This document shows, piece by piece, positions 2,954 to 49,456 of a DNA stretch of 64,000 bases; positions within the stretch are counted from its first letter, which is position 1; each line of letters opens with the position of its first letter. A model generated the notes under the pieces. It ran no database searches. It was not told where the DNA came from and saw only the letters and a list, made by a program, of their open reading frames with translations. The stretch is from Escherichia phage N2. The stretch lies in sequence record ON645936.1. The stretch is one strand, 5' to 3'. A program made the translations under genes and the position numbers.

Positions 2954-4933
2954 ATGACTTTATTATCTCCGGGCATTGAGCTCAAAGAAACTACGGTTCA
3001 AAGCACTGTGGTTAATAACTCTACTGGTACAGCAGCTTTGGCCGGTAAATTCCAGTGGGGTCCTGCTTTTCAGATCAAACAGGTTACAAATGAAGTAGAT
3101 TTAGTTAATACTTTTGGTCAACCTACAGCTGAAACTGCTGATTATTTTATGTCTGCAATGAATTTCTTACAATATGGAAATGATTTGCGAGTTGTGCGTG
3201 CTGTCGATAGAGATACCGCTAAAAACTCATCTCCGATTGCTGGTAATATTGAATACACTATTTCTACCCCAGGTAGTAACTACGCGGTTGGAGATAAAAT
3301 CACAGTTAAGTATGTTTCAGAAGACATTGAAACGGAAGGTAAAATTACCGAAGTAGATGCTGATGGAAAAATTAAGAAAATTAATATTCCTACCGCAAAA
3401 ATTATCGCTAAAGCGAAAGAAGTCGGTGAATATCCAGCATTAGGTTCTAACTGGACCGCGGAAATTTCTTCGTCTTCCTCTGGTTTAGCTGCAGTAATAA
3501 CTCTTGGAAAAATTATTACTGATTCTGGTATTTTATTAGCTGAGATTGAAAATGCTGAAGCTGCTATGACAGCAGTTGAATTTCAAACAAATCTCGAAAA
3601 ATATGGAATTCCAGGAGTAGTAGCTCTTTATCCAGGCGAGTTGGGCGATAAAATCGAAATCGAAATCGTATCTAAAGCTGACTACGCAAAAGGAGCTTCT
3701 GCATTACTCCCAATTTATCCAGGTGGCGGAACACGCGCATCTACTGCTAAGGCAGTGTTTGGATATGGACCACAAACTGATTCACAATATGCTATTATAG
3801 TTCGCCGTAATGATGCTATTGTTCAAAGTATTGTTCTTTCAACAAAGCGTGGTGAAAAAGACATTTATGACAGTAACATCTATATTGATGACTTTTTCGC
3901 AAAAGGCGGTTCAGAATATATTTTCGCAACTGCACAAAACTGGCCAGAAGGCTTCTCCGGAATTTTAACTCTGTCTGGTGGATTATCATCAAATGCTGAA
4001 GTAACAGCAGGAGATTTGATGGAAGCCTGGGACTTCTTTGCTGACCGTGAATCTGTTGACGTTCAGTTGTTTATTGCGGGTTCTTGCGCCGGCGAATCTT
4101 TAGAAACAGCATCTACTGTCCAAAAACACGTCGTTTCAATTGGGGATGCTCGCCAAGATTGCTTAGTATTGTGCTCACCACCGCGTGAAACTGTAGTTGG
4201 AATTCCTGTAACTCGTGCTGTTGATAACTTAGTCAATTGGAGAACTGCAGCAGGTTCATACACCGATAATAACTTTAATATCAGTTCAACCTACGCAGCA
4301 ATTGATGGTAACTACAAGTATCAGTATGACAAATATAATGATGTGAATCGTTGGGTTCCATTAGCAGCTGATATTGCCGGTTTATGTGCAAGAACCGATA
4401 ACGTTTCTCAGACTTGGATGTCTCCAGCTGGTTATAATCGCGGCCAGATTCTTAACGTTATTAAACTTGCTATTGAAACTCGCCAGGCGCAGCGCGATCG
4501 TTTATACCAAGAAGCTATCAACCCGGTAACCGGTACAGGTGGTGATGGTTACGTATTGTATGGTGATAAAACAGCTACTTCTGTTCCTTCTCCATTTGAT
4601 CGTATTAACGTTCGTCGTCTGTTTAATATGCTGAAAACGAATATCGGACGTAGTTCAAAATATCGTTTGTTCGAATTAAACAACGCGTTTACTCGTTCAT
4701 CATTCCGCACAGAAACTGCCCAATACTTACAGGGAATTAAAGCTCTCGGTGGAATTTATGAATATCGTGTAGTTTGCGATACAACAAATAACACTCCGTC
4801 AGTAATTGATAGAAATGAGTTTGTTGCAACATTCTACATCCAACCGGCTCGTAGTATAAATTATATCCAACTTAATTTCGTCGCAACTGCTACTGGTGCA
4901 GATTTCGATGAGTTAACTGGTCTTGCAGGTTAA
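2954..4933 (+). CDS. 18: tail sheath protein gp18
   Basis: 659-aa ORF matching T4 gp18 length and N-terminus; preceded by TATAAATA late promoter. Confidence 0.95.
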   Translation: MTLLSPGIELKETTVQSTVVNNSTGTAALAGKFQWGPAFQIKQVTNEVDLVNTFGQPTAETADYFMSAMNFLQYGNDLRVVRAVDRDTAKNSSPIAGNIEYTISTPGSNYAVGDKITVKYVSEDIETEGKITEVDADGKIKKINIPTAKIIAKAKEVGEYPALGSNWTAEISSSSSGLAAVITLGKIITDSGILLAEIENAEAAMTAVEFQTNLEKYGIPGVVALYPGELGDKIEIEIVSKADYAKGASALLPIYPGGGTRASTAKAVFGYGPQTDSQYAIIVRRNDAIVQSIVLSTKRGEKDIYDSNIYIDDFFAKGGSEYIFATAQNWPEGFSGILTLSGGLSSNAEVTAGDLMEAWDFFADRESVDVQLFIAGSCAGESLETASTVQKHVVSIGDARQDCLVLCSPPRETVVGIPVTRAVDNLVNWRTAAGSYTDNNFNISSTYAAIDGNYKYQYDKYNDVNRWVPLAADIAGLCARTDNVSQTWMSPAGYNRGQILNVIKLAIETRQAQRDRLYQEAINPVTGTGGDGYVLYGDKTATSVPSPFDRINVRRLFNMLKTNIGRSSKYRLFELNNAFTRSSFRTETAQYLQGIKALGGIYEYRVVCDTTNNTPSVIDRNEFVATFYIQPARSINYIQLNFVATATGADFDELTGLAG

Positions 4934-4945
4934 TTGATTGATTGT

Positions 4946-4959
4946 GGGGCTTCGGCCCC
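4946..4959 (+). terminator. GC hairpin with UUCG tetraloop after gene 18
   Basis: GGGGC-UUCG-GCCCC; weak U tract, so may be a stability element rather than a terminator. Confidence 0.45.
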
Positions 4960-4976
4960 TATTCTCGAGGAAACAA

Positions 4977-5582
4977 GTGATTATTTCTAAGTTTGTTACA
5001 ATAAAACCAAGAAATCATTCAAAAATGTGGTCGACAATTCTAGGATATAAAGTATCATATCATGATACAGTATCTGTTCCAATAGAATTAATGCCAAAGA
5101 ATAGTAATAAAATAGTTGACGCTAAATGTGATTTGTGCGGTATTAAATTTAGTAGAAGCATTCAGCTTTTAAATAGAACACCTACACATGCATGTAGAAA
5201 ATGTAGCATTAAACAAGTTGCTATTAAAAATTCGGAAGTTCAATCCGGAATAAGCAGACCATGGCAAAGAGGCGATAAACACCCTCGATGGACTGGTAAA
5301 AGAAAAGAGTTTGCATTATATGCTAGTAGAGTTCATTCTATAACTAAGTCAGCTAAAATAAGAAAAATTTGGTCAAAATGGCCGAATGCTGATAAAATAG
5401 GAGTGTGCGGTGTAGAAGGTGCTTACCAACTCGATCATAAAGTATCTATCAAATATGGATTTGATAATTTAATTCCGCCGGAAATTATAGCAAGCGTAAA
5501 AAATTTAGAAATAATCACTTGGGAATCTAACCGAGAAAAGTCAAAAAGAAATAGCGTAGATCTTTGGGATTTACTAGAATGA
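4977..5582 (+). CDS. HNH-family homing endonuclease-like protein inserted between genes 18 and 19 (start uncertain: GTG 4977 with GAGGA SD, or ATG 5025)
   Basis: C-terminal HNH-like motif (..YQLDHKVSIKYGFDN..NLEIITWESNREK) plus Cys pairs CDLCG / HACRKC; absent from this position in T4 as I recall it. Confidence 0.7.
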   Translation: MIISKFVTIKPRNHSKMWSTILGYKVSYHDTVSVPIELMPKNSNKIVDAKCDLCGIKFSRSIQLLNRTPTHACRKCSIKQVAIKNSEVQSGISRPWQRGDKHPRWTGKRKEFALYASRVHSITKSAKIRKIWSKWPNADKIGVCGVEGAYQLDHKVSIKYGFDNLIPPEIIASVKNLEIITWESNREKSKRNSVDLWDLLE

Positions 5583-5589
5583 TTCTAAA

Positions 5590-5607
5590 GGCCTGTTTCG
5601 GCAGGCC
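5590..5607 (+). terminator. hairpin after the HNH gene
   Basis: GGCCTG-TTTCGG-CAGGCC. Confidence 0.4.
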
Positions 5608-5608
5608 A

Positions 5609-5616
5609 TATAAATA
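5609..5616 (+). promoter_or_regulatory. late promoter TATAAATA immediately after hairpin
   Basis: Exact octamer. Confidence 0.6.
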
Positions 5617-5667
5617 CACTATATCCTTAATTCTTTAATTCTATATGCCCTAGGTTAAACATAGGGA

Positions 5668-5675
5668 TATAAATA
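5668..5675 (+). promoter_or_regulatory. late promoter TATAAATA (gene 19)
   Basis: Exact octamer 15 nt upstream of gene 19 ATG. Confidence 0.75.
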
Positions 5676-5689
5676 CTACAGAGGCTAAT

Positions 5690-6181
5690 ATGTTTGTAGA
5701 TGATGTAACACGAGCGTTTGAATCTGGTGATTTTGCTCGACCTAACTTATTCCAAGTAGAAATTTCTTATCTTGGACAAAATTTTACGTTTCAATGTAAA
5801 GCCACTGCTTTACCAGCTGGTATTGTAGAAAAAATTCCAGTCGGATTTATGAACCGTAAAATTAACGTAGCAGGCGATCGTACATTCGATGACTGGACTG
5901 TTACAGTAATGAACGATGAGGCACATGATGCTCGCCAGAAGTTCGTTGATTGGCAAAGCATTGCTGCGGGACAAGGAAACGAAATTACTGGTGGAAAACC
6001 TGCAGAGTATAAAAAGAGCGCTATCGTTCGTCAATATGCTCGTGACGCTAAAACAGTAACAAAAGAAATTGAAATTAAAGGTCTGTGGCCTACTAACGTG
6101 GGTGAACTTCAATTAGATTGGGATTCAAACAATGAAATCCAAACATTTGAAGTAACTCTTGCTCTCGATTATTGGGAATAA
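5690..6181 (+). CDS. 19: tail tube protein gp19
   Basis: 163-aa ORF, T4 gp19-like; late promoter and SD upstream. Confidence 0.95.
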   Translation: MFVDDVTRAFESGDFARPNLFQVEISYLGQNFTFQCKATALPAGIVEKIPVGFMNRKINVAGDRTFDDWTVTVMNDEAHDARQKFVDWQSIAAGQGNEITGGKPAEYKKSAIVRQYARDAKTVTKEIEIKGLWPTNVGELQLDWDSNNEIQTFEVTLALDYWE

Positions 6182-40630: not shown

Positions 40631-42218
<1,588 letters not shown>

Positions 42219-42226
42219 AATAAAAT

Positions 42227-42240
42227 GGGCCTTGCGGCCC
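42227..42240 (-). promoter_or_regulatory. hairpin bridging a distant SD (GGAG) to the denA start codon
   Basis: TAAGGAGU-GGGCC GCAA GGCCC-AUUUUAUU-AUG on minus strand. Confidence 0.45.
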
Positions 42241-42245
42241 ACTCC

Positions 42246-43424
42246 TTAAAAATATTTTTTAAAACTCATCATAACTTTATCATCAACATCATTATCAATC
42301 TGTGCTACAAGGTAAGATGACAGTTCTACTTCTTGTGGTGCAGATTGAACATTATCAGAATTAAGGTATTCACGAATCCAAGGATATGGATGTTTAACCG
42401 GAGCATCGGTAATTGGACATGGAAGACCACACTGTTTCATACGAGATACAGTTAAGTAATCAATAAAGCTCCACATGCTATTTGTATTTAATCCAGGAAC
42501 ATCGCCATCTTTAAATAAATGAACTGCCCAATCTTTTTCTTGGCGGTTAACTTCCATGAAAATATCAACTGCTTCTTGTTCACACTCTTGAGCAATTTTA
42601 ACCCATTCATCACCATCAGTACCGGATTGAAGTTGACGAATAATATATTGAGTGCCTTTAAGGTGAAGCTGCTCATCACGTGCAATGAACTTCATAATCT
42701 TGGCATTACCTTCCATGATTTCCATGTTCTTATGGAAGTTAAAGGTACATGCAAAAGATACATAAAAACGAATAGCTTCTAAGGCATTAATAACGTGCAA
42801 ACAGAGGTAAAGAGATTTCATTAGTGCTCGTTTAGCTTCGGCTTCTTGTTTAATAGCTCGATTTAAACGAAAAACAGCATCAGGAGATTCTTTAGCTAGT
42901 TCTGTAAATTCTTTAGCATTTTCCCATTCACGGGTTTTAGTCAGAACATCATCATAATAGCGACCGATAGATTCAGCACGTTTCATAATAGCTTTATCTA
43001 GTACAATCTCATCAAATACCTTCGATGGATCAGTATAAAGATTTCGCATGATATGAGTATATGAACGACTGTGAATAGTTTCACTAAAAGTCCATGTAGC
43101 AACCCATGTATCAAGGCTTGGGTCTGAAATTAATGACATAAGTACAGCAGACGGCGCACGACCTTGAATACTATCAAGTAATGATTGATACTTCAGATTA
43201 TTAGTAAAAATATTTTGTTGATACTGAGGAAGCTTATTAAACTGTGCAGCATCCATCATCAAGTTTACTTCTTCCGGACGCCAGAAAAACGAGAGCGAAC
43301 GTTCAATAAGTTCTTCAAATACTCGATGCCGTTGAATATCATAACGCGCAATACCAAGACCTGAACCAAAAAACATAGGTTCTTTTAAAACATCGACCTG
43401 TTTAGTATTAAAAACTGTACTCAT
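42246..43424 (-). CDS. nrdB: ribonucleotide reductase small subunit, uninterrupted
   Basis: 392-aa continuous ORF with di-iron/radical subunit character. Confidence 0.93.
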   Translation of the reverse strand: MSTVFNTKQVDVLKEPMFFGSGLGIARYDIQRHRVFEELIERSLSFFWRPEEVNLMMDAAQFNKLPQYQQNIFTNNLKYQSLLDSIQGRAPSAVLMSLISDPSLDTWVATWTFSETIHSRSYTHIMRNLYTDPSKVFDEIVLDKAIMKRAESIGRYYDDVLTKTREWENAKEFTELAKESPDAVFRLNRAIKQEAEAKRALMKSLYLCLHVINALEAIRFYVSFACTFNFHKNMEIMEGNAKIMKFIARDEQLHLKGTQYIIRQLQSGTDGDEWVKIAQECEQEAVDIFMEVNRQEKDWAVHLFKDGDVPGLNTNSMWSFIDYLTVSRMKQCGLPCPITDAPVKHPYPWIREYLNSDNVQSAPQEVELSSYLVAQIDNDVDDKVMMSFKKYF

Positions 43425-45016
43425 TATTTTGTCCTGTAAACTAAATTTCCACAGTCCCAGATTCTTCTAAGACCATTTGCATAACAATTTTCTACTTCAG
43501 TTATTGTATCATCATAATTTTTAAGCTTGTTTTTAAGCTTATGTTTCATATAGCTTGAGCGGTGAAATACCTCTCCTTTATCGACGTACCAATAACATGG
43601 CTCAGAGATATGACTAAATTCCATGACAGAGTCATAAACATTTGATAATGTACTGCACCATCTTCGATTGCCATAAGATAGACAATTAATTCCTTTTAAT
43701 AATTTTGAGGCTCCTCCTACAACACAAACCCCTAATTTTGAACACATCCTTAAAAGTTCATCACCTGAGCTATATCTAGATTTACCGATAGAAATAATTT
43801 GAACTAACTCATTATTGTAATAAAGTCCTTTATACGTATGAGCTCCTGAGCAAAATCCTTGAAGATGATTCTTATTAATAAATTCTTTTGCCTCATCCTT
43901 ATTAACAAACCGTGCTTTGCATTTTCGGGCTGGTATTCTTTCTGATAATCCTAATTTATGCTTTATAATGGATTTCCAGATCTCTCTTTTTGTATCATCA
44001 ATCCATTCATTTTCGAAGATGTGAAGTAATTGAATTCCTTGTGCTTCACACATCTCTGTCTTCATCAAATGATAAGTTTCTTTAATTTTATCTGTTTCCT
44101 TTGACCCGCTAGAATGCCAATAAATTCCATCGTATTCTATAGCCAATTTTTTCTCAGGAATGTAAATATCTAATTCATACGGAGGAATAATTTTTCTAGT
44201 TTCTACGCAATCAAATCCTAGATCTAAAATGAATTGCTCTATAGAACTTTGAGTATAATGAACGTCAATTAGTCCTTTGGATGAAAGAGCTCTATAAGCC
44301 GTCATCCGAGAACAATTTGCTAATTGTTGTAGTTCTTCTATAGAAATTTTGTAATTGATTTTATCTAGTATATCATGATTAATATGACCGTTATTTTTAA
44401 TAGATTTTCCTATAGATGAATATAACGATGCCTTATATTCTTCAGTCCAATTTAATTTAGTCTTCTTAGATTTTTCGCGAGATTTTCTAGAATGCAGAAT
44501 ATCAACTGATTTACCGTTTTCTATAACTTTTCTCGCTTCTTTCACACTTTCTAATTGTGAATTATGCGTTACCCCATATCGTTCAATTAAAGTTTTTCTA
44601 TTTTTATTTCTTGAAATTTTTTGATGAGTTGTTCCATATTTTTCTAAAGAATTTTTGTGTTGAAGTTCAGACAAATATTTTTTATATTTTTCTTTTCCGC
44701 CAAAATTTGTATCACGGCTTTGAATTCTCTTATCCGCGAAAAATATCCCTGCGCAGGATTTACTACATGTTGCTGGAAATACACGTTTCTTTGCTGTTTT
44801 CAGAGAAATGAAATTTCCACAAACTGCACATTTTAGATCGTTAATGTCAATGCCTTCCATAATTTGGAACACATTGAGCTTAAAATCTATTCCATCAGTT
44901 AGAAGAGCTTTATCTTCTTCTGTTAGTCTAGATTTAAGTTTTTCTTCTCCAAATGGAAGAAACTTTCCGTTTTTGTATATATTATCAAACATAGCGTTAT
45001 TCTTAGTTAACCACAT
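43424..45016 (-). CDS. multidomain putative homing endonuclease: Cys-pair zinc ribbon, Lys-rich linker, Vsr/DUF559-like PD-(D/E)xK motif, unknown C-terminal domain
   Basis: 530-aa ORF between nrdB and nrdA; motifs CAVCGN..CSKSCAG and YELDIYIPEKKLAIEYDGIYWHS. Confidence 0.6.
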   Translation of the reverse strand: MWLTKNNAMFDNIYKNGKFLPFGEEKLKSRLTEEDKALLTDGIDFKLNVFQIMEGIDINDLKCAVCGNFISLKTAKKRVFPATCSKSCAGIFFADKRIQSRDTNFGGKEKYKKYLSELQHKNSLEKYGTTHQKISRNKNRKTLIERYGVTHNSQLESVKEARKVIENGKSVDILHSRKSREKSKKTKLNWTEEYKASLYSSIGKSIKNNGHINHDILDKINYKISIEELQQLANCSRMTAYRALSSKGLIDVHYTQSSIEQFILDLGFDCVETRKIIPPYELDIYIPEKKLAIEYDGIYWHSSGSKETDKIKETYHLMKTEMCEAQGIQLLHIFENEWIDDTKREIWKSIIKHKLGLSERIPARKCKARFVNKDEAKEFINKNHLQGFCSGAHTYKGLYYNNELVQIISIGKSRYSSGDELLRMCSKLGVCVVGGASKLLKGINCLSYGNRRWCSTLSNVYDSVMEFSHISEPCYWYVDKGEVFHRSSYMKHKLKNKLKNYDDTITEVENCYANGLRRIWDCGNLVYRTK

Positions 45017-45032
45017 CCTTGTGGTAATTATA

Positions 45033-47297
45033 TCATAATTTACAGGATGAACAATCTTCAGCTTTTGGAGTTTCTATTTCGTAATCATCAGTACCGGAAC
45101 CGTCGCGGGTATTATGATAATAGAAATTTTTTCCGCCAAAATACCAAAAATACAAAAGGTCATCAATCATTATTGACATTGGAACCTTTCCTTTTGGAAA
45201 AATCTGCGGGTCATAATATGTATTCGCTGAAGCTGATTGACATACCCATTTCAACATAATAGCTACTTGCGTAAGATAAGGTTTATTACCTTTCTTAGCT
45301 AATTTCCACGTATAATCATAGAGGTCTATGTTATGCTCAATATTGGGCACGACTTGATTAAAGGAACCCTCTTTTGATTCTTTAACAGAGACTGGTCCAC
45401 GTGGAGGCTCGATACCGTTTGTACTGTTAGAAACTTGGGAAGATGACTCACATGGCATAAGTGCTGATAATGTGCTATTACGGATGCCAAAGAGCTTAAG
45501 GTCTTCCCGCAGCGACGACCAGTCACAAACGTATTTTGGAGCTGCGATTTGGTCAATCTTTTTATTGTACCAGTCGATAGGTAATTCGCCTCGAGACCAA
45601 CGAGTGTCTGAATAATATTCGCAAGGTCCTTTTTCTTTGGCGAGCTTAATGGATGCTTTAATGAGTCCATACTGTAATCTCTCAAATAGTTCATGTGTTA
45701 AATCGTTAGCATCTTCATAAGAAGCAAAGTTACTTGCCAGCCAAGCTGCATAGTTAGTAACACCTACACCGAGGTTACGACGCTTTTTAGCTTTTTCTGC
45801 TTCAGGAACTGGATATCCTTGGTAATCCAAAAGATTATCAAGAGCACGAACTTGAACTTCTGCCAATTCATTAATTTTATCTTGGTCTTGCCAATCGAAG
45901 TTATCTAATACAAATGCGCTAAGGGTACACAATCCAATTTCAGCATCAGGACTATTCACATCATTTGTTGGAATAGCAATTTCACAGCACAAGTTACTCT
46001 GACGAATAGGTGCCTTTTCACGAATAAACGGAGTATAGTTATTCGTATTATCAATGAACTGCACATAAATCCTTGCTGTTCCTGAACGTTCAGTCATGAG
46101 CAATTCAAATAGTTCACGGGCTTTAATACGCTTTTTGCGAATATTAGGGTCTTTTTCTGCGGCTTCATACAATTCACGGAAACGGTCTTGGTCTTTAAAA
46201 TAAGAATAATAAAGCTCGCCACCCATTTCGTGTGGACTGAACAAAGTAATGTAGTCGTTCTTTCCAAAACGTTCCATCATCAAATCATTCAGTTGAACGC
46301 CATAATCCATATGACGGATACGGTTTTCTTCTACGCCTTTGTTATTTTTCAAAACGAGAAGATTTTCAACTTCCAAATGCCAAATAGGATAATAAGCAGT
46401 AGCAGCGCCGCCACGAATTCCGCCTTGTGAACATGATTTAACAGCAGTCTGAAAATGTTTCCAAAAAGGAATAACGCCAGTATGACGCACTTCACCTGTG
46501 CCAATCTTAGAACCTTCGGCACGAATCATACCAACGTTAATACCAATTCCAGCGCGTTTGGAGATATATTCAACAATTGAAGCAGAAGCCTTATTGATAG
46601 ACTTCAGCGAATCACCTGCTTCAATAACAACGCATGAACTAAACTGTCGAGTTGGAGTACGACAACCAGCCATAATAGGAGTTGGCAATGAAATCTGTCG
46701 AGTAGATACTGCTTCATAAAAACGGATAACGTGTTTTAATCTATCAACAGGTTCATCTTGATGCAATGCCATTCCAATAGTCATAAATGCAAACTGTGGA
46801 GTTTCATAAATTTGACCAGTGGTTTTATCTTTAACGAGATATTTTTCTTTTAATTGCATCGCCCCGGAATAAGTAAATTCCATATCCCGCTCGTGCTTAA
46901 TTTTTGATTCTAAAAATGTAATTTCTTCTGCTGAATATTTTGACAATAATTCAGGGTCATATTTACCTTCATTTACACAGTAAGAAATATGGTCAATAAA
47001 TGAACGGGGCTCATACTGTCCGTACACGTGTTTACGAAGAGCAAACATTAAACAGCGTGCAGCTACGTATTGATAATCAGGCTCTTCAACTGAAATAGAA
47101 TTCGCAGCAGCCTTAATTACAATGGTTTGAATGTCATCAGTGGTCATTCCATCACGGAGATATGATTTAATATTTTCATATAATTCATAAGGATCTACTG
47201 ATGTTCCTTCAGCTGCCCAAGATAAAACTTTAATAATTTTTTGTGGGTCAAAGCTCTGAGAAACACCACTACTTTTGATAACATTAATTAATTGCAT
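45033..47297 (-). CDS. nrdA: ribonucleotide reductase large subunit
   Basis: 754-aa ORF from MQLINVIKSSG with GAGGA SD; the 29-codon upstream extension in the track is rejected. Confidence 0.95.
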   Translation of the reverse strand: MQLINVIKSSGVSQSFDPQKIIKVLSWAAEGTSVDPYELYENIKSYLRDGMTTDDIQTIVIKAAANSISVEEPDYQYVAARCLMFALRKHVYGQYEPRSFIDHISYCVNEGKYDPELLSKYSAEEITFLESKIKHERDMEFTYSGAMQLKEKYLVKDKTTGQIYETPQFAFMTIGMALHQDEPVDRLKHVIRFYEAVSTRQISLPTPIMAGCRTPTRQFSSCVVIEAGDSLKSINKASASIVEYISKRAGIGINVGMIRAEGSKIGTGEVRHTGVIPFWKHFQTAVKSCSQGGIRGGAATAYYPIWHLEVENLLVLKNNKGVEENRIRHMDYGVQLNDLMMERFGKNDYITLFSPHEMGGELYYSYFKDQDRFRELYEAAEKDPNIRKKRIKARELFELLMTERSGTARIYVQFIDNTNNYTPFIREKAPIRQSNLCCEIAIPTNDVNSPDAEIGLCTLSAFVLDNFDWQDQDKINELAEVQVRALDNLLDYQGYPVPEAEKAKKRRNLGVGVTNYAAWLASNFASYEDANDLTHELFERLQYGLIKASIKLAKEKGPCEYYSDTRWSRGELPIDWYNKKIDQIAAPKYVCDWSSLREDLKLFGIRNSTLSALMPCESSSQVSNSTNGIEPPRGPVSVKESKEGSFNQVVPNIEHNIDLYDYTWKLAKKGNKPYLTQVAIMLKWVCQSASANTYYDPQIFPKGKVPMSIMIDDLLYFWYFGGKNFYYHNTRDGSGTDDYEIETPKAEDCSSCKL

Positions 47298-47322
47298 AAG
47301 TCCTCTGTAGTAAGTTACCCCA

Positions 47323-47330
47323 TATAAATA
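47323..47330 (+). promoter_or_regulatory. late promoter TATAAATA driving the free-standing GIY-YIG endonuclease gene
   Basis: Exact octamer 23 nt upstream of ATG, followed by AGGAG SD. Confidence 0.7.
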
Positions 47331-47352
47331 TAATTTTATATAGGAGAATATA

Positions 47353-48084
47353 ATGAAATCTGGAATATATGCTATTATAAACACTAAAACTAATAAGCAC
47401 TATATAGGAAGTGCAATTAATTTTGAAGAACGATGGAAACGACACTTTAAAGATTTAGATAATGGAAATCATCATTCAATAAAGCTGCAGCGTTCTTATA
47501 ATAAGCATGGTAAAGATGCTTTCGTATGTAAAATCATAGAAGAACTTCCATACGAAAAATCTATCATTATTGAACGTGAAAATTATTGGATGCATGAATA
47601 TGACTCAAAGGAAAATGGGTATAATATAGCAGACGCATCGTTTGGGGATACCTTATCTCATCACCCAAGAAAGCAAGAAATCCTTAATAAAATTTCAAAT
47701 GCAATTAAAAATAATAATTCAAAATTATCACCAGAAGAACTTAAGCAAAAACATGGTAGACCTAGAGACATCAAAGGTAAAACTATAGAAGAACACTATG
47801 GGTTAGATCGTGCTATAGAAATAAGCAAAAAGTTCCAAGAAAGAAACGCTGCACTTAATATGAAAGGCATCAATAATCCATATTACGGACAGACGCATAC
47901 CAATGAAGTTAGAAAACGAATTTCTGACTCACAGAGAGGTAAAAAGAAACCCCATCTAAGAGTAAGTATAGATGGGGTAGAATATCCAACAATAGCAGAA
48001 GCTGTGCGTCAAACCGGAATAAGCAGAAAACTTATATCTAAAAGATGCGCTCTAGATTGCTGGGAATCATATTTATACTGCTAA
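47353..48084 (+). CDS. free-standing GIY-YIG homing endonuclease of the I-TevI family
   Basis: 243-aa ORF; N-terminal [46 protein letters not shown] closely parallels I-TevI catalytic domain; TATAAATA late promoter and AGGAG SD upstream. Confidence 0.85.
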
Positions 48085-48341: not shown

Positions 48342-48653
48342 TTATACCGCCATTTTTCCTTTCAAGACACCGTGGGACTGATAATCTTTGAGAACGAAAT
48401 CTTTAGGCCTGAGTTTAAGAATGTATTCCAATTGTTCTTTAGTAGAAAGATAACGGAATTTATAAGGTAATCCGCCTATTACCAGTTCACAAAGCTCTTT
48501 AGATTCACGACGCAAAATTTCTTTACATTGTTCTACGTGATTCATATAGATATGAGTATTACCACCAGAAAATATCAAATCTCCTGGAATAAGATTACAC
48601 ATCTTAGCTACAATATGAACTAACGCAGCATATGATGCAATATTAAATGGAAG
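48342..48653 (-). CDS. td: thymidylate synthase, exon 2
   Basis: Encodes LPFNIASYA... ThyA C-terminal region; joins in frame to exon 1 after intron removal. Confidence 0.9.
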   Translation of the reverse strand, partial: LPFNIASYAALVHIVAKMCNLIPGDLIFSGGNTHIYMNHVEQCKEILRRESKELCELVIGGLPYKFRYLSTKEQLEYILKLRPKDFVLKDYQSHGVLKGKMAV

Positions 48654-48907
48654 CATTATGTTCAGATAAGGTCGTTAATCTTATCCCGGAATTATATCCA
48701 GCTGCATGTCACCATACAGATCAGACTATATCTCCATCTTGATGAAGCAAGATGTCTATCGTTTCGAGTCACTTGACCCTACTCCCCAAAGGGATAGTCG
48801 TTAGGCATTTAGTTCAAAAGAACATTTAGCACGGGATTGTCTACTAGAGAGGTTCCCCGTTTAGATAGATTACAAGTATAAGTCACCTTATACTCAGGCC
48901 TCAATTA
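48654..48907 (-). ncRNA. group I self-splicing intron in td, ORF-less (about 254 nt)
   Basis: Starts UAAUUGAGGCCUGAGUAUAAGGUGACUUAUACUUGUAAUCUAUCUAAACGGGGAACC after exon-1 ...CUUGGGU, ends ...CUGAACAUAAUG before exon 2, matching remembered T4 td intron ends. Confidence 0.85.
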
Positions 48908-49456
48908 ACCCAAGAACACGTCAACACTTCTTTGATACCACTGCAAATCCAAATAGCCATTACGCACATTAAACTGATAGAACATATGACAAGGCGGTAA
49001 TGCCATTTGCTTGAGTTCAGCTGGATTCCATGCAGAAACAACTTGACGTCTATCATTTGGCAGTTTTTTAATACGATCAATAACTTCTACAATTTGGTCT
49101 ACACCACCAAAATCACGCCACTGTTTTCCATAAATTGGACCAAGTTCACCACTATGATATCCTAAATCTTTTGCTTGATTTTCGTAATTTTCATCCCAGA
49201 CTGTTTTGCCTTGAATTAATGAATCGTGTTGAATTAATCGTAAATCATTGACATTTGTGCTTCCTGATAAAAACCAAAGTAGCTCAGCAATGCAAGCTTT
49301 CCAGGCGAGCTTCTTAGTTGTTACTGCAGGAAAACCTTTAGTTAAATCCCAGCGTAATTTAGTACCGAACAAAGCAATTGTTCCTGTGCCTGTTCGGTCA
49401 TCAGTTTCATAGCCATTTTCAAAAATGTCTTTAATTAAATCTTGGTATTGTTTCAT
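48908..49456 (-). CDS. td: thymidylate synthase, exon 1
   Basis: 183 codons ending ...QRSVDVFLG, followed by in-frame UAA at intron start. Confidence 0.9.

Follow-up and report, generated by a model that had tools for sequence, protein, structure and literature searches.

Why does the tail gene block of Escherichia phage N2 contain a gene that phage T4 does not have? The stretch analyzed here (record ON645936.1; 64,000 nucleotides (nt), hereafter the window) is a segment of a T4-like (Tequatrovirus) genome. An additional open reading frame (ORF) interrupts its late structural genes, giving the order 17-18-ORF-19-20, and the gap between the tail sheath gene (18) and the tail tube gene (19) has grown to 756 nt, versus 116 nt in T4. 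The comparative evidence described below suggests that ORF 4977-5582 is probably a free-standing HNH (beta-beta-alpha-metal) homing endonuclease gene at a Tequatrovirus sheath/tube site. We infer its nuclease activity, its target and its homing from this evidence. The locus comprises the following features:

2954-4933, + strand: gene 18 (tail sheath), the upstream neighbor; an ORF of 659 amino acids (aa), annotated as tail sheath in matching records
4934-5581, no strand: segment inserted relative to T4; 648 nt in place of the 8-nt T4 sequence TACGGTGC, according to an alignment with T4 and RB9
4977-5582, + strand: HNH endonuclease gene; 201 aa plus stop codon, 200/201 residues identical to T6ORF160
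5690-6181, + strand: gene 19 (tail tube), the downstream neighbor; an ORF identified by the annotation of matching records

Presence, absence and relatives of the gene

An earlier interpretation made from the sequence alone (the sequence-only reading) had stated that T4 has no gene between 18 and 19. The junction comparison bears this out, as the T4 spacer is geneless and the gene found in the window is absent from it. The boundaries of the insert were identical in the 8 empty-site and 10 carrier phages compared, and TACGGTGC was present in all 8 empty-site phages, T4 and T2 included. The right end of the insert is the stop codon of the ORF (TGA, 5580-5582), and the sequence from 5582 to 5689 is 100% identical to T4. 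At the left junction (4934-4945), carriers differ from each other by small TTGA-type repeats, with TTGATTGATTGT in the window and TTGATTGT, TTGATAA, TTTATTGT, TTGATAT or TTGATTAT in other carriers; the hairpin that follows the junction is invariant.

In order to determine how widespread the gene is, we counted carriers among the approximately 521 Tequatrovirus-level records that match the flanks with at least 90% identity, a carrier being a record with at least 80% coverage of the ORF-containing query. The gene was present in 116 records (about 22%) and missing from the remaining 78% or so. It comes in two alleles. In 69 records the encoded protein is at least 95% identical to that of the window (allele A), and by subtraction about 47 records, for example RB9, HP3, Pinarejo and ZCEC15, appear to carry a second version (allele B), for which coverage of the ORF-region query is about 54%. 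The two alleles have the leader and the last ~330 nt in common. The proteins are only 33% identical over residues 1-125, but 87% identical over residues 126-201, and this difference is found within one genus and between near-identical flanks. The N-terminal half of allele B is 61% identical to its counterpart in Klebsiella phage Roth21. Among the classical T-even phages, the site is empty in T2 and T4, whereas T6 has allele A under the name "T6ORF160, hypothetical protein".

Beyond the genus, a tblastn search identified a homologue in 239 phage records. In the four cases examined (Klebsiella Roth21, Acinetobacter AbTZA1, Vibrio VmeM-32 and Sinorhizobium phiM7), it immediately followed the sheath gene. 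A search of viral contigs yielded 80 loci, with gp18 as a neighbor in about 45 of them. Where the match included the N-terminal part, the association was tighter still, with 30 of 33 loci in a gp18/gp19 context, in phages with a portal protein only about 40% identical to that of the window. One uncultured T4-like phage (L031, 2887-3477) has a full-length member of the family (196 aa, E 9e-63) between gp18 and gp19 on the opposite strand, which implies an independent insertion. A weaker, similar inverted case adjoins the 3' end of gp18 in another contig (L060). Three tandem ORFs of the family (367, 313 and 275 aa) lie on one viral contig (L062, 403-4748, and also L063), with a short gp18-like fragment between the second and the third. 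We found no paralogues of the gene within the window.

Relatives that match mainly in the HNH half also occur elsewhere, after baseplate wedge, DnaB-like helicase and major head genes, and between SbcD-like and SbcC-like genes. Helicase, SbcCD-like, baseplate and head-gene neighborhoods are typical sites of free-standing homing genes. Some of these relatives, such as the one in L053, also have the cysteine module described below, and some relatives carry NUMOD3, helix-turn-helix or DUF7487 modules. The family is large: an exhaustive profile search collected 6,541 representative clusters at E <=0.001 and 1,740 at E <=1e-10. It appears essentially restricted to phages, because a search of 185,579 species-representative bacterial and archaeal genomes gave only 2 matches, both on contigs of metagenome-assembled genomes with a phage-like size (151-172 kb).

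Taken together, the homing endonuclease reading rests on three aspects of this distribution. The gene is present or absent with identical boundaries among near-identical phages; T4-like phages that are very distant from each other have a gene at the same site, in one case inverted; and relatives of mainly the nuclease half adjoin other core genes.

The location could also be explained by a role in DNA packaging, similar to that of the terminase-assisting HNH proteins of HK97-like phages. The gene is part of the 17-18-19-20 block, and the genes for the large terminase and the portal are approximately 2 kb and 0.7 kb away, respectively. However, gene 18 intervenes, so that the adjacency to a terminase gene expected of an HK97 gp74-like protein is lacking, and the same packaging genes are found without the additional ORF in T4, in T2 and in the majority of close relatives. 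The relatives next to helicase, SbcCD-like, baseplate and capsid genes are also difficult to reconcile with such a role, and T4 gp17 carries a nuclease of its own. We therefore regard a packaging accessory factor as highly improbable.

The encoded protein

The stop-to-stop ORF extends from 4938 to 5582 and has a mechanical start at TTG 4938. The sequence-only reading had favored a non-ATG start at GTG 4977 preceded by a GAGGA Shine-Dalgarno sequence, and had described a product of roughly 200 aa with pairs of cysteines and a C-terminal HNH-like motif. Both proposals agree with our analysis, which located the elements in question at or near the expected positions:

4967-4971 and 4977-4979, + strand: Shine-Dalgarno sequence GAGGA and GTG start codon; read from the sequence, with GAGGA 5 nt upstream of GTG
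5127-5204, + strand: Cys51-x2-Cys54 ... Cys73-x2-Cys76 module, predicted to bind zinc and DNA; the cysteines are invariant or nearly so
5433-5540, + strand: HNH catalytic motif D153-H154 ... N176 ... N185-R-x-K188

Four lines of evidence agree on GTG 4977 as the most likely start. The alignment with the PHROG 5104 profile begins exactly at the residue encoded by this codon, members of the family share a conserved N-terminus, MIISKxV (with I2 in at least 90% of the sequences in an alignment of 43 homologues), distant homologues have an ATG start codon at the same aligned position, and the AlphaFold2 (AF2) confidence over residues 1-10 is 94. GenBank annotations disagree about the start (GTG, ATG 5025 or an upstream TTG), and four different start codons have been annotated. 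The product names are equally diverse, and include hypothetical protein, HNH endonuclease, holin, putative head morphogenesis protein, 19.1 and type II restriction endonuclease. Names given so inconsistently to the same gene must be considered unreliable.

The last of these names, used for the Klebsiella phages Roth19 and Roth21, would make the protein a type II restriction enzyme. Apart from the two GenBank product names, the evidence is against this. There is no methyltransferase partner, the neighbors are the sheath and tube genes, scans with Pfam, NCBIfam and PADLOC gave no match to restriction enzyme families, and the names used for the gene elsewhere (holin, head morphogenesis, hypothetical) are in conflict with it. 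Of the explanations considered here, we give this one the least credence.

The alignment of the 43 homologues revealed two conserved features, namely the four cysteines C51, C54, C73 and C76, and a C-terminal segment of the form YQLDHKVS...NLEIITWExNRxK. D153, H154, N176 and N185 were invariant in 50 diverse relatives, and K188 was at least 90% conserved. In the structural model, a beta-hairpin and a helix come together at the metal site in the manner characteristic of the HNH (beta-beta-alpha-metal) superfamily, so that the HNH fold that the sequence-only reading had called for was indeed detected. The arrangement D-H ... N ... N-x-x-K, including its spacing, presumably resembles the HNH motif of Cas9. 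Among solved structures, the closest folds are the Gme HNH nicking endonuclease (4h9d), the HNH protein of phage GVE2 (5h0o), the HNH domains of Cas9 and the T5 nicking endonuclease SciA (9qgx), all of which have the beta-beta-alpha-metal core in common with the protein. The protein is predicted to act as a metal-dependent nuclease.

Family libraries were less informative. The protein matches PHROG 5104 over its full length (E = 5.4e-82, profile positions 1-209 of 228). This family is listed as "unknown function" and has no functional label, so the HNH and homing interpretation is an addition of the present analysis. A weak match to PHROG 12131, "homing endonuclease", covers residues 29-100 of the 214-aa ORF, equivalent to residues 16-87 of the 201-aa protein. 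The Pfam matches (Prim-Pol, DUF4379 and C2H2 finger) were all weak and below the cut-offs; the DUF4379 treble-clef match, likewise below the Pfam cut-off, falls on the cysteine module. Pfam HNH models (PF01844, PF13392, PF14279 and others) did not match either the whole protein or its C-terminal 73 aa at E values up to 1-10, nor did any of the 50 relatives match Pfam HNH models at E values up to 0.01. Single-sequence and profile searches of the PDB returned weak zinc-finger look-alikes and no HNH protein, and Foldseek found nothing in the PDB at E <=0.001.

The GTG codon and the reading frame were intact in all 10 copies examined (9 carriers and T6). Copies of allele A differed from each other by 13 synonymous and 0-1 non-synonymous substitutions, corresponding to a ratio of non-synonymous to synonymous polymorphism (pN/pS) of about 0-0.1; in the comparison of the window with PP01, the numbers were 13 and 0. 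The gene is under purifying selection. This bears on the idea that the ORF might be a decaying relic, or a passenger that no longer encodes a working nuclease. T4 does have defective homing genes, such as I-TevIII (PMC2988022), and no family library recognizes the domain. Nevertheless, the intact frames and the low pN/pS, the invariance of the catalytic residues in the 50 diverse relatives of a family with 6,541 representative clusters, and the confident AF2 model make an inactive relic very unlikely.

A hot spot in gene 18 and a proposed homing cycle

We compared 1 kb to the left and about 0.66 kb to the right of the insertion in 7 phages with an empty site, 5 with allele A and 4 with allele B; for T2 and T6, the comparison was confined to the final 120 nt of gene 18. 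The sample thus consisted of 18 sequences, not chosen at random, and was complemented by BLAST summary counts. One feature stood out:

4850-4882, + strand: hot spot of mostly silent substitutions at the 3' end of gene 18, encoding ARSINYI(T/Q)LNFV; candidate recognition/cleavage site or co-conversion patch

The window differs from T4 at 14 of these 33 positions, compared with 0.77 differences expected from the local background (P ~1.6e-13), and only one of the changes, T to Q, affects the protein. The hot spot lies 50-85 nt upstream of the insertion, and the encoded peptide belongs to PARSINYIxLNFVA, where the sheath C-terminus of all distant carriers is most conserved. A non-T4 version of the hot spot was found in 10 of 10 carriers, and the T4 type was seen only in the empty-site phages T4 and PYPS2T. 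Moreover, each allele is tied to a hot-spot version of its own (A in 6/6 cases, T6 included; B in 4/4). A chimeric query consisting of the T4 hot spot and the leader of allele A, the one allele addressed in this way, had no match above 94.2% identity at full coverage, and therefore none of the 76 records with at least 80% query coverage combines the two. Since the 49 nt between the hot spot and the insertion are ordinary Tequatrovirus sequence, the hot spot is not simply foreign DNA that was dragged in with the cassette.

At least five nucleotide versions of the 33-nt segment exist in a single genus (T2, T4, wV7, EC128 and SP21535 were compared), and the SP21535 version resembles a hybrid of two others. 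Such silent diversity is unusually high for a segment that encodes a nearly invariant peptide. Carriers from other genera do not have a single nucleotide version in common that would amount to a universal hot-spot sequence. The non-T4 versions contain the octamer TATAAATT at 4855-4862, which we considered as a late promoter and rejected: with 13 copies in the window versus 12.2 expected, it occurs at chance frequency, unlike the late-promoter motif TATAAATA, and a promoter role is therefore unsupported.

The hot-spot pattern is suggestive of a recognition or cleavage site that has been recoded, or of patchy co-conversion, and, judging from the sequence comparison, the hot spot may mark the place of cleavage. 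A further, tentative possibility, for which we claim no great confidence, is that the N-terminal module reads the DNA that encodes PARSINYIxLNFVA, a near-universal motif of the sheath C-terminus, and that the protein represents one lineage of a large unrecognized phage HNH family. If so, reading the DNA of a sheath motif would explain how the gene tracks the sheath/tube site across the T4 superfamily; the hot spot, with its at least five haplotypes, would have been left by an arms race of the enzyme with its target, and the N-terminal alleles would represent two specificities.

Several predicted signals lie in and next to the insert:

4946-4959, + strand: leader hairpin GGGGC-UUCG-GCCCC; predicted by folding, carried with the insert in both alleles and kept in 9 carriers
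5590-5607, + strand: post-gene-18 hairpin GGCCUGU-UUCG-GCAGGCC; fold z = -3.1, native and also present in T4
5609-5616 and 5668-5675, + strand: two late-promoter motifs TATAAATA upstream of gene 19; native T4 sequence

The sequence-only reading had described the ORF as bracketed by hairpins and by two late promoters. All of these elements exist, but the bracket does not belong to the insert as a whole: the downstream hairpin and both copies of TATAAATA are outside of it and native to the gene 18/19 spacer, because the window is identical to T4 from 5582 to 5689. TATAAATA occurs 19 times in the window, compared with 8.9 expected occurrences. As the intergenic leader of the HNH gene has no such motif and the nearest upstream copy is at 2918, late transcription of the gene is probable, on a gene 18 message that starts from the 2918 promoter motif. 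We examined two roles for the leader hairpin and rejected both. A typical intrinsic terminator can be dismissed because a T-run is absent; in addition, a terminator scan made no call at 4946-4959, and the fold was not significant against shuffled sequences. Masking of the ribosome-binding site, known from mobE, where a hairpin hides the ribosome site, was not supported either, as the predicted leader fold contains no comparably strong sequestering pairing.

The observations can be combined into a putative homing cycle, by analogy with MobE, SegF and SegG (PMC2988022, PMC2993671). The gene would be transcribed late together with gene 18 and translated from GTG 4977. The N-terminal half of the protein (residues 1 to ~125, including the four-cysteine module) would then bind a specific sequence at the end of gene 18, or close to it, in the DNA of a co-infecting phage whose site is empty. 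In line with such a division of labor, a variable N-terminal module (33% identity between A and B), for which DNA binding is predicted, is joined to a conserved HNH half (87%). The single C-terminal HNH site would nick or cut the target DNA, and recombinational repair on the carrier template would copy the 648-nt cassette and some flanking sequence into the empty site. A carrier might be protected from its own enzyme by the loss of the 8-nt junction, by the recoding of gene 18 at 4850-4882, or by both.

Several findings weigh against homing. The gene occupies the same locus in very divergent phages, and its divergence is similar to that of its neighbors (approximately 64% identity between allele B and Roth21, 72% for gp18 and 67% for gp19), as would fit vertical inheritance with losses. 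Non-T4 versions of the hot spot are also present in 6 of the 8 empty-site phages, T2 among them, and no flanking single-nucleotide polymorphism within 1 kb on either side was perfectly associated with the presence of the gene. No Pfam, NCBIfam or PADLOC model detects the HNH domain, and a literature search found no paper on the gene and no cleavage or homing experiment.

The first of these findings in particular would suit a beneficial accessory nuclease that has long resided at a fixed locus, is inherited vertically with frequent loss, and is not actively homing. Such an enzyme might degrade the DNA of competitor phages or of the host, or counter a defence system, and one report describes endonucleases of this kind as an aid in phage competition (PMC11620839). 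Strong purifying selection, a position that is constant in several Straboviridae subfamilies and also outside them, and an allele B that diverged from Roth21 to a degree resembling the flanking gp18 and gp19 are all compatible with long residence. Against it, the gene is dispensable, since T4, T2 and some 78% of the Tequatrovirus records do without it; one copy (L031) is inverted at the same site; two alleles with N-terminal halves that are 33% identical coexist in one genus between near-identical flanks; relatives are found in other classic niches of homing genes; and all empty sites have one precise junction in common. On balance, we consider a purely resident nuclease unlikely. Mobility is favored by the copy in inverted orientation, the mosaic of two alleles, the one precise junction of all empty sites and the occurrence of relatives in other niches.

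Other nuclease-like genes and comparison with known homing systems

The window contains further candidate mobile nucleases. On the minus strand, a 530-aa ORF (43424-45016) separates nrdB (42246-43424) from nrdA (45033-47384), where T4 has mobE and nrdB.1. Its sole Pfam match (REase_MTES_1575, E 1.7e-4) is weak and does not reach the cut-off; the ORF may encode another type of mobile nuclease that occupies the mobE niche. A 243-aa ORF on the plus strand (47353-48084) combines a GIY-YIG domain with a NUMOD3 motif and an I-TevI-like DNA-binding domain. This ORF is on the strand opposite to nrdA and td, overlaps the start of nrdA by about 32 nt, and takes the place of nrdA.1 and nrdA.2 of T4; a copy of TATAAATA is found 30 nt upstream (47323-47330). 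It resembles a homing gene of the seg type, with an unusual orientation. The thymidylate synthase frame (48342-49456, minus strand) seems interrupted, with a 183-aa ORF (48905-49456) that corresponds to positions 1-175 of the 266-position Pfam model. The interruption fits a td intron, but no I-TevI-sized ORF was found inside this region on the minus strand. ORF 41808-42242 was considered as another GIY-YIG homing gene and rejected, as it corresponds to T4 denA.

Small differences were also noted near gene 20. In Ptacy1496 (L003, 2366-2801), the portal gene is annotated as two coding sequences and the sequence diverges approximately 0.9 kb 3' of the insert, and in SP21535 (L088) the 19/20 spacer is 2 nt longer. 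They may be further small insertions or indels.

An element of the kind described here will not surprise a specialist, as free-standing homing genes are well known and more than 100 public genomes contain this one. The novelty lies in recognizing a large phage HNH family for which the libraries have no model, its reversed domain order relative to the Mob proteins, its marked fidelity to the sheath/tube site, and a candidate target. Free-standing homing endonucleases shape both the mosaicism of T4-like phages and marker exclusion among them, and those characterized so far are mostly from T4. The phage-restricted HNH family represents an annotation gap, since it is missed by Pfam, NCBIfam and PADLOC and has the label "unknown function" in PHROGs; with a named family model, hundreds of annotations would be corrected. 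In therapeutic Tequatrovirus genomes, local recombination boundaries might be explained in part by the gene.

The sequence-only reading had called the gene a likely mob-type homing endonuclease. The homing part of this proposal is upheld by the comparative evidence, but homology to the Mob proteins is not: for MobE, the one of MobA-E that was compared, hhalign gave a probability of 0.07% against the family profile. The term "mob-type" therefore applies only loosely, in the sense of a free-standing HNH gene. The likeness to T4 MobA-E, of which MobE is the characterized one, is one of lifestyle. In both cases, a small intergenic gene is located between conserved genes, usually in the same orientation, is patchily distributed among close relatives, combines an HNH-type site with a separate, presumed DNA-binding part, and is expected to nick or cut a neighboring conserved gene in phages without the element (PMC2988022). 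The architecture differs. Mob proteins have an N-terminal HNH domain and a C-terminal DNA-binding region (PMC2988022), whereas the order is reversed in the protein studied here. The HNH domain of MobE (residues 21-44) matches PF01844; the one at residues 150-188 of the window protein has no Pfam HNH match. Furthermore, Mob genes are found among genes of nucleotide metabolism, and the present gene has an unusual location inside the late structural (tail) operon. A table by Petrov et al. (2010) lists one "other HNH" gene for T6, which is possibly, but not certainly, T6ORF160.

In its predicted logic, the system resembles the intronless homing of the T4 endonucleases SegF and SegG, with a cut in a conserved neighbor at some distance from the insertion point, co-conversion of flanking markers and a recoded target in the carrier (PMC2993671, PMC2988022). 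By analogy, the hot spot at 4850-4882 fits the SegF/SegG pattern. The difference lies in the catalytic domain, which is GIY-YIG in SegF and SegG and HNH in the protein described here, and in the source of the evidence, as polymorphism alone points to the target and to co-conversion in the present case.

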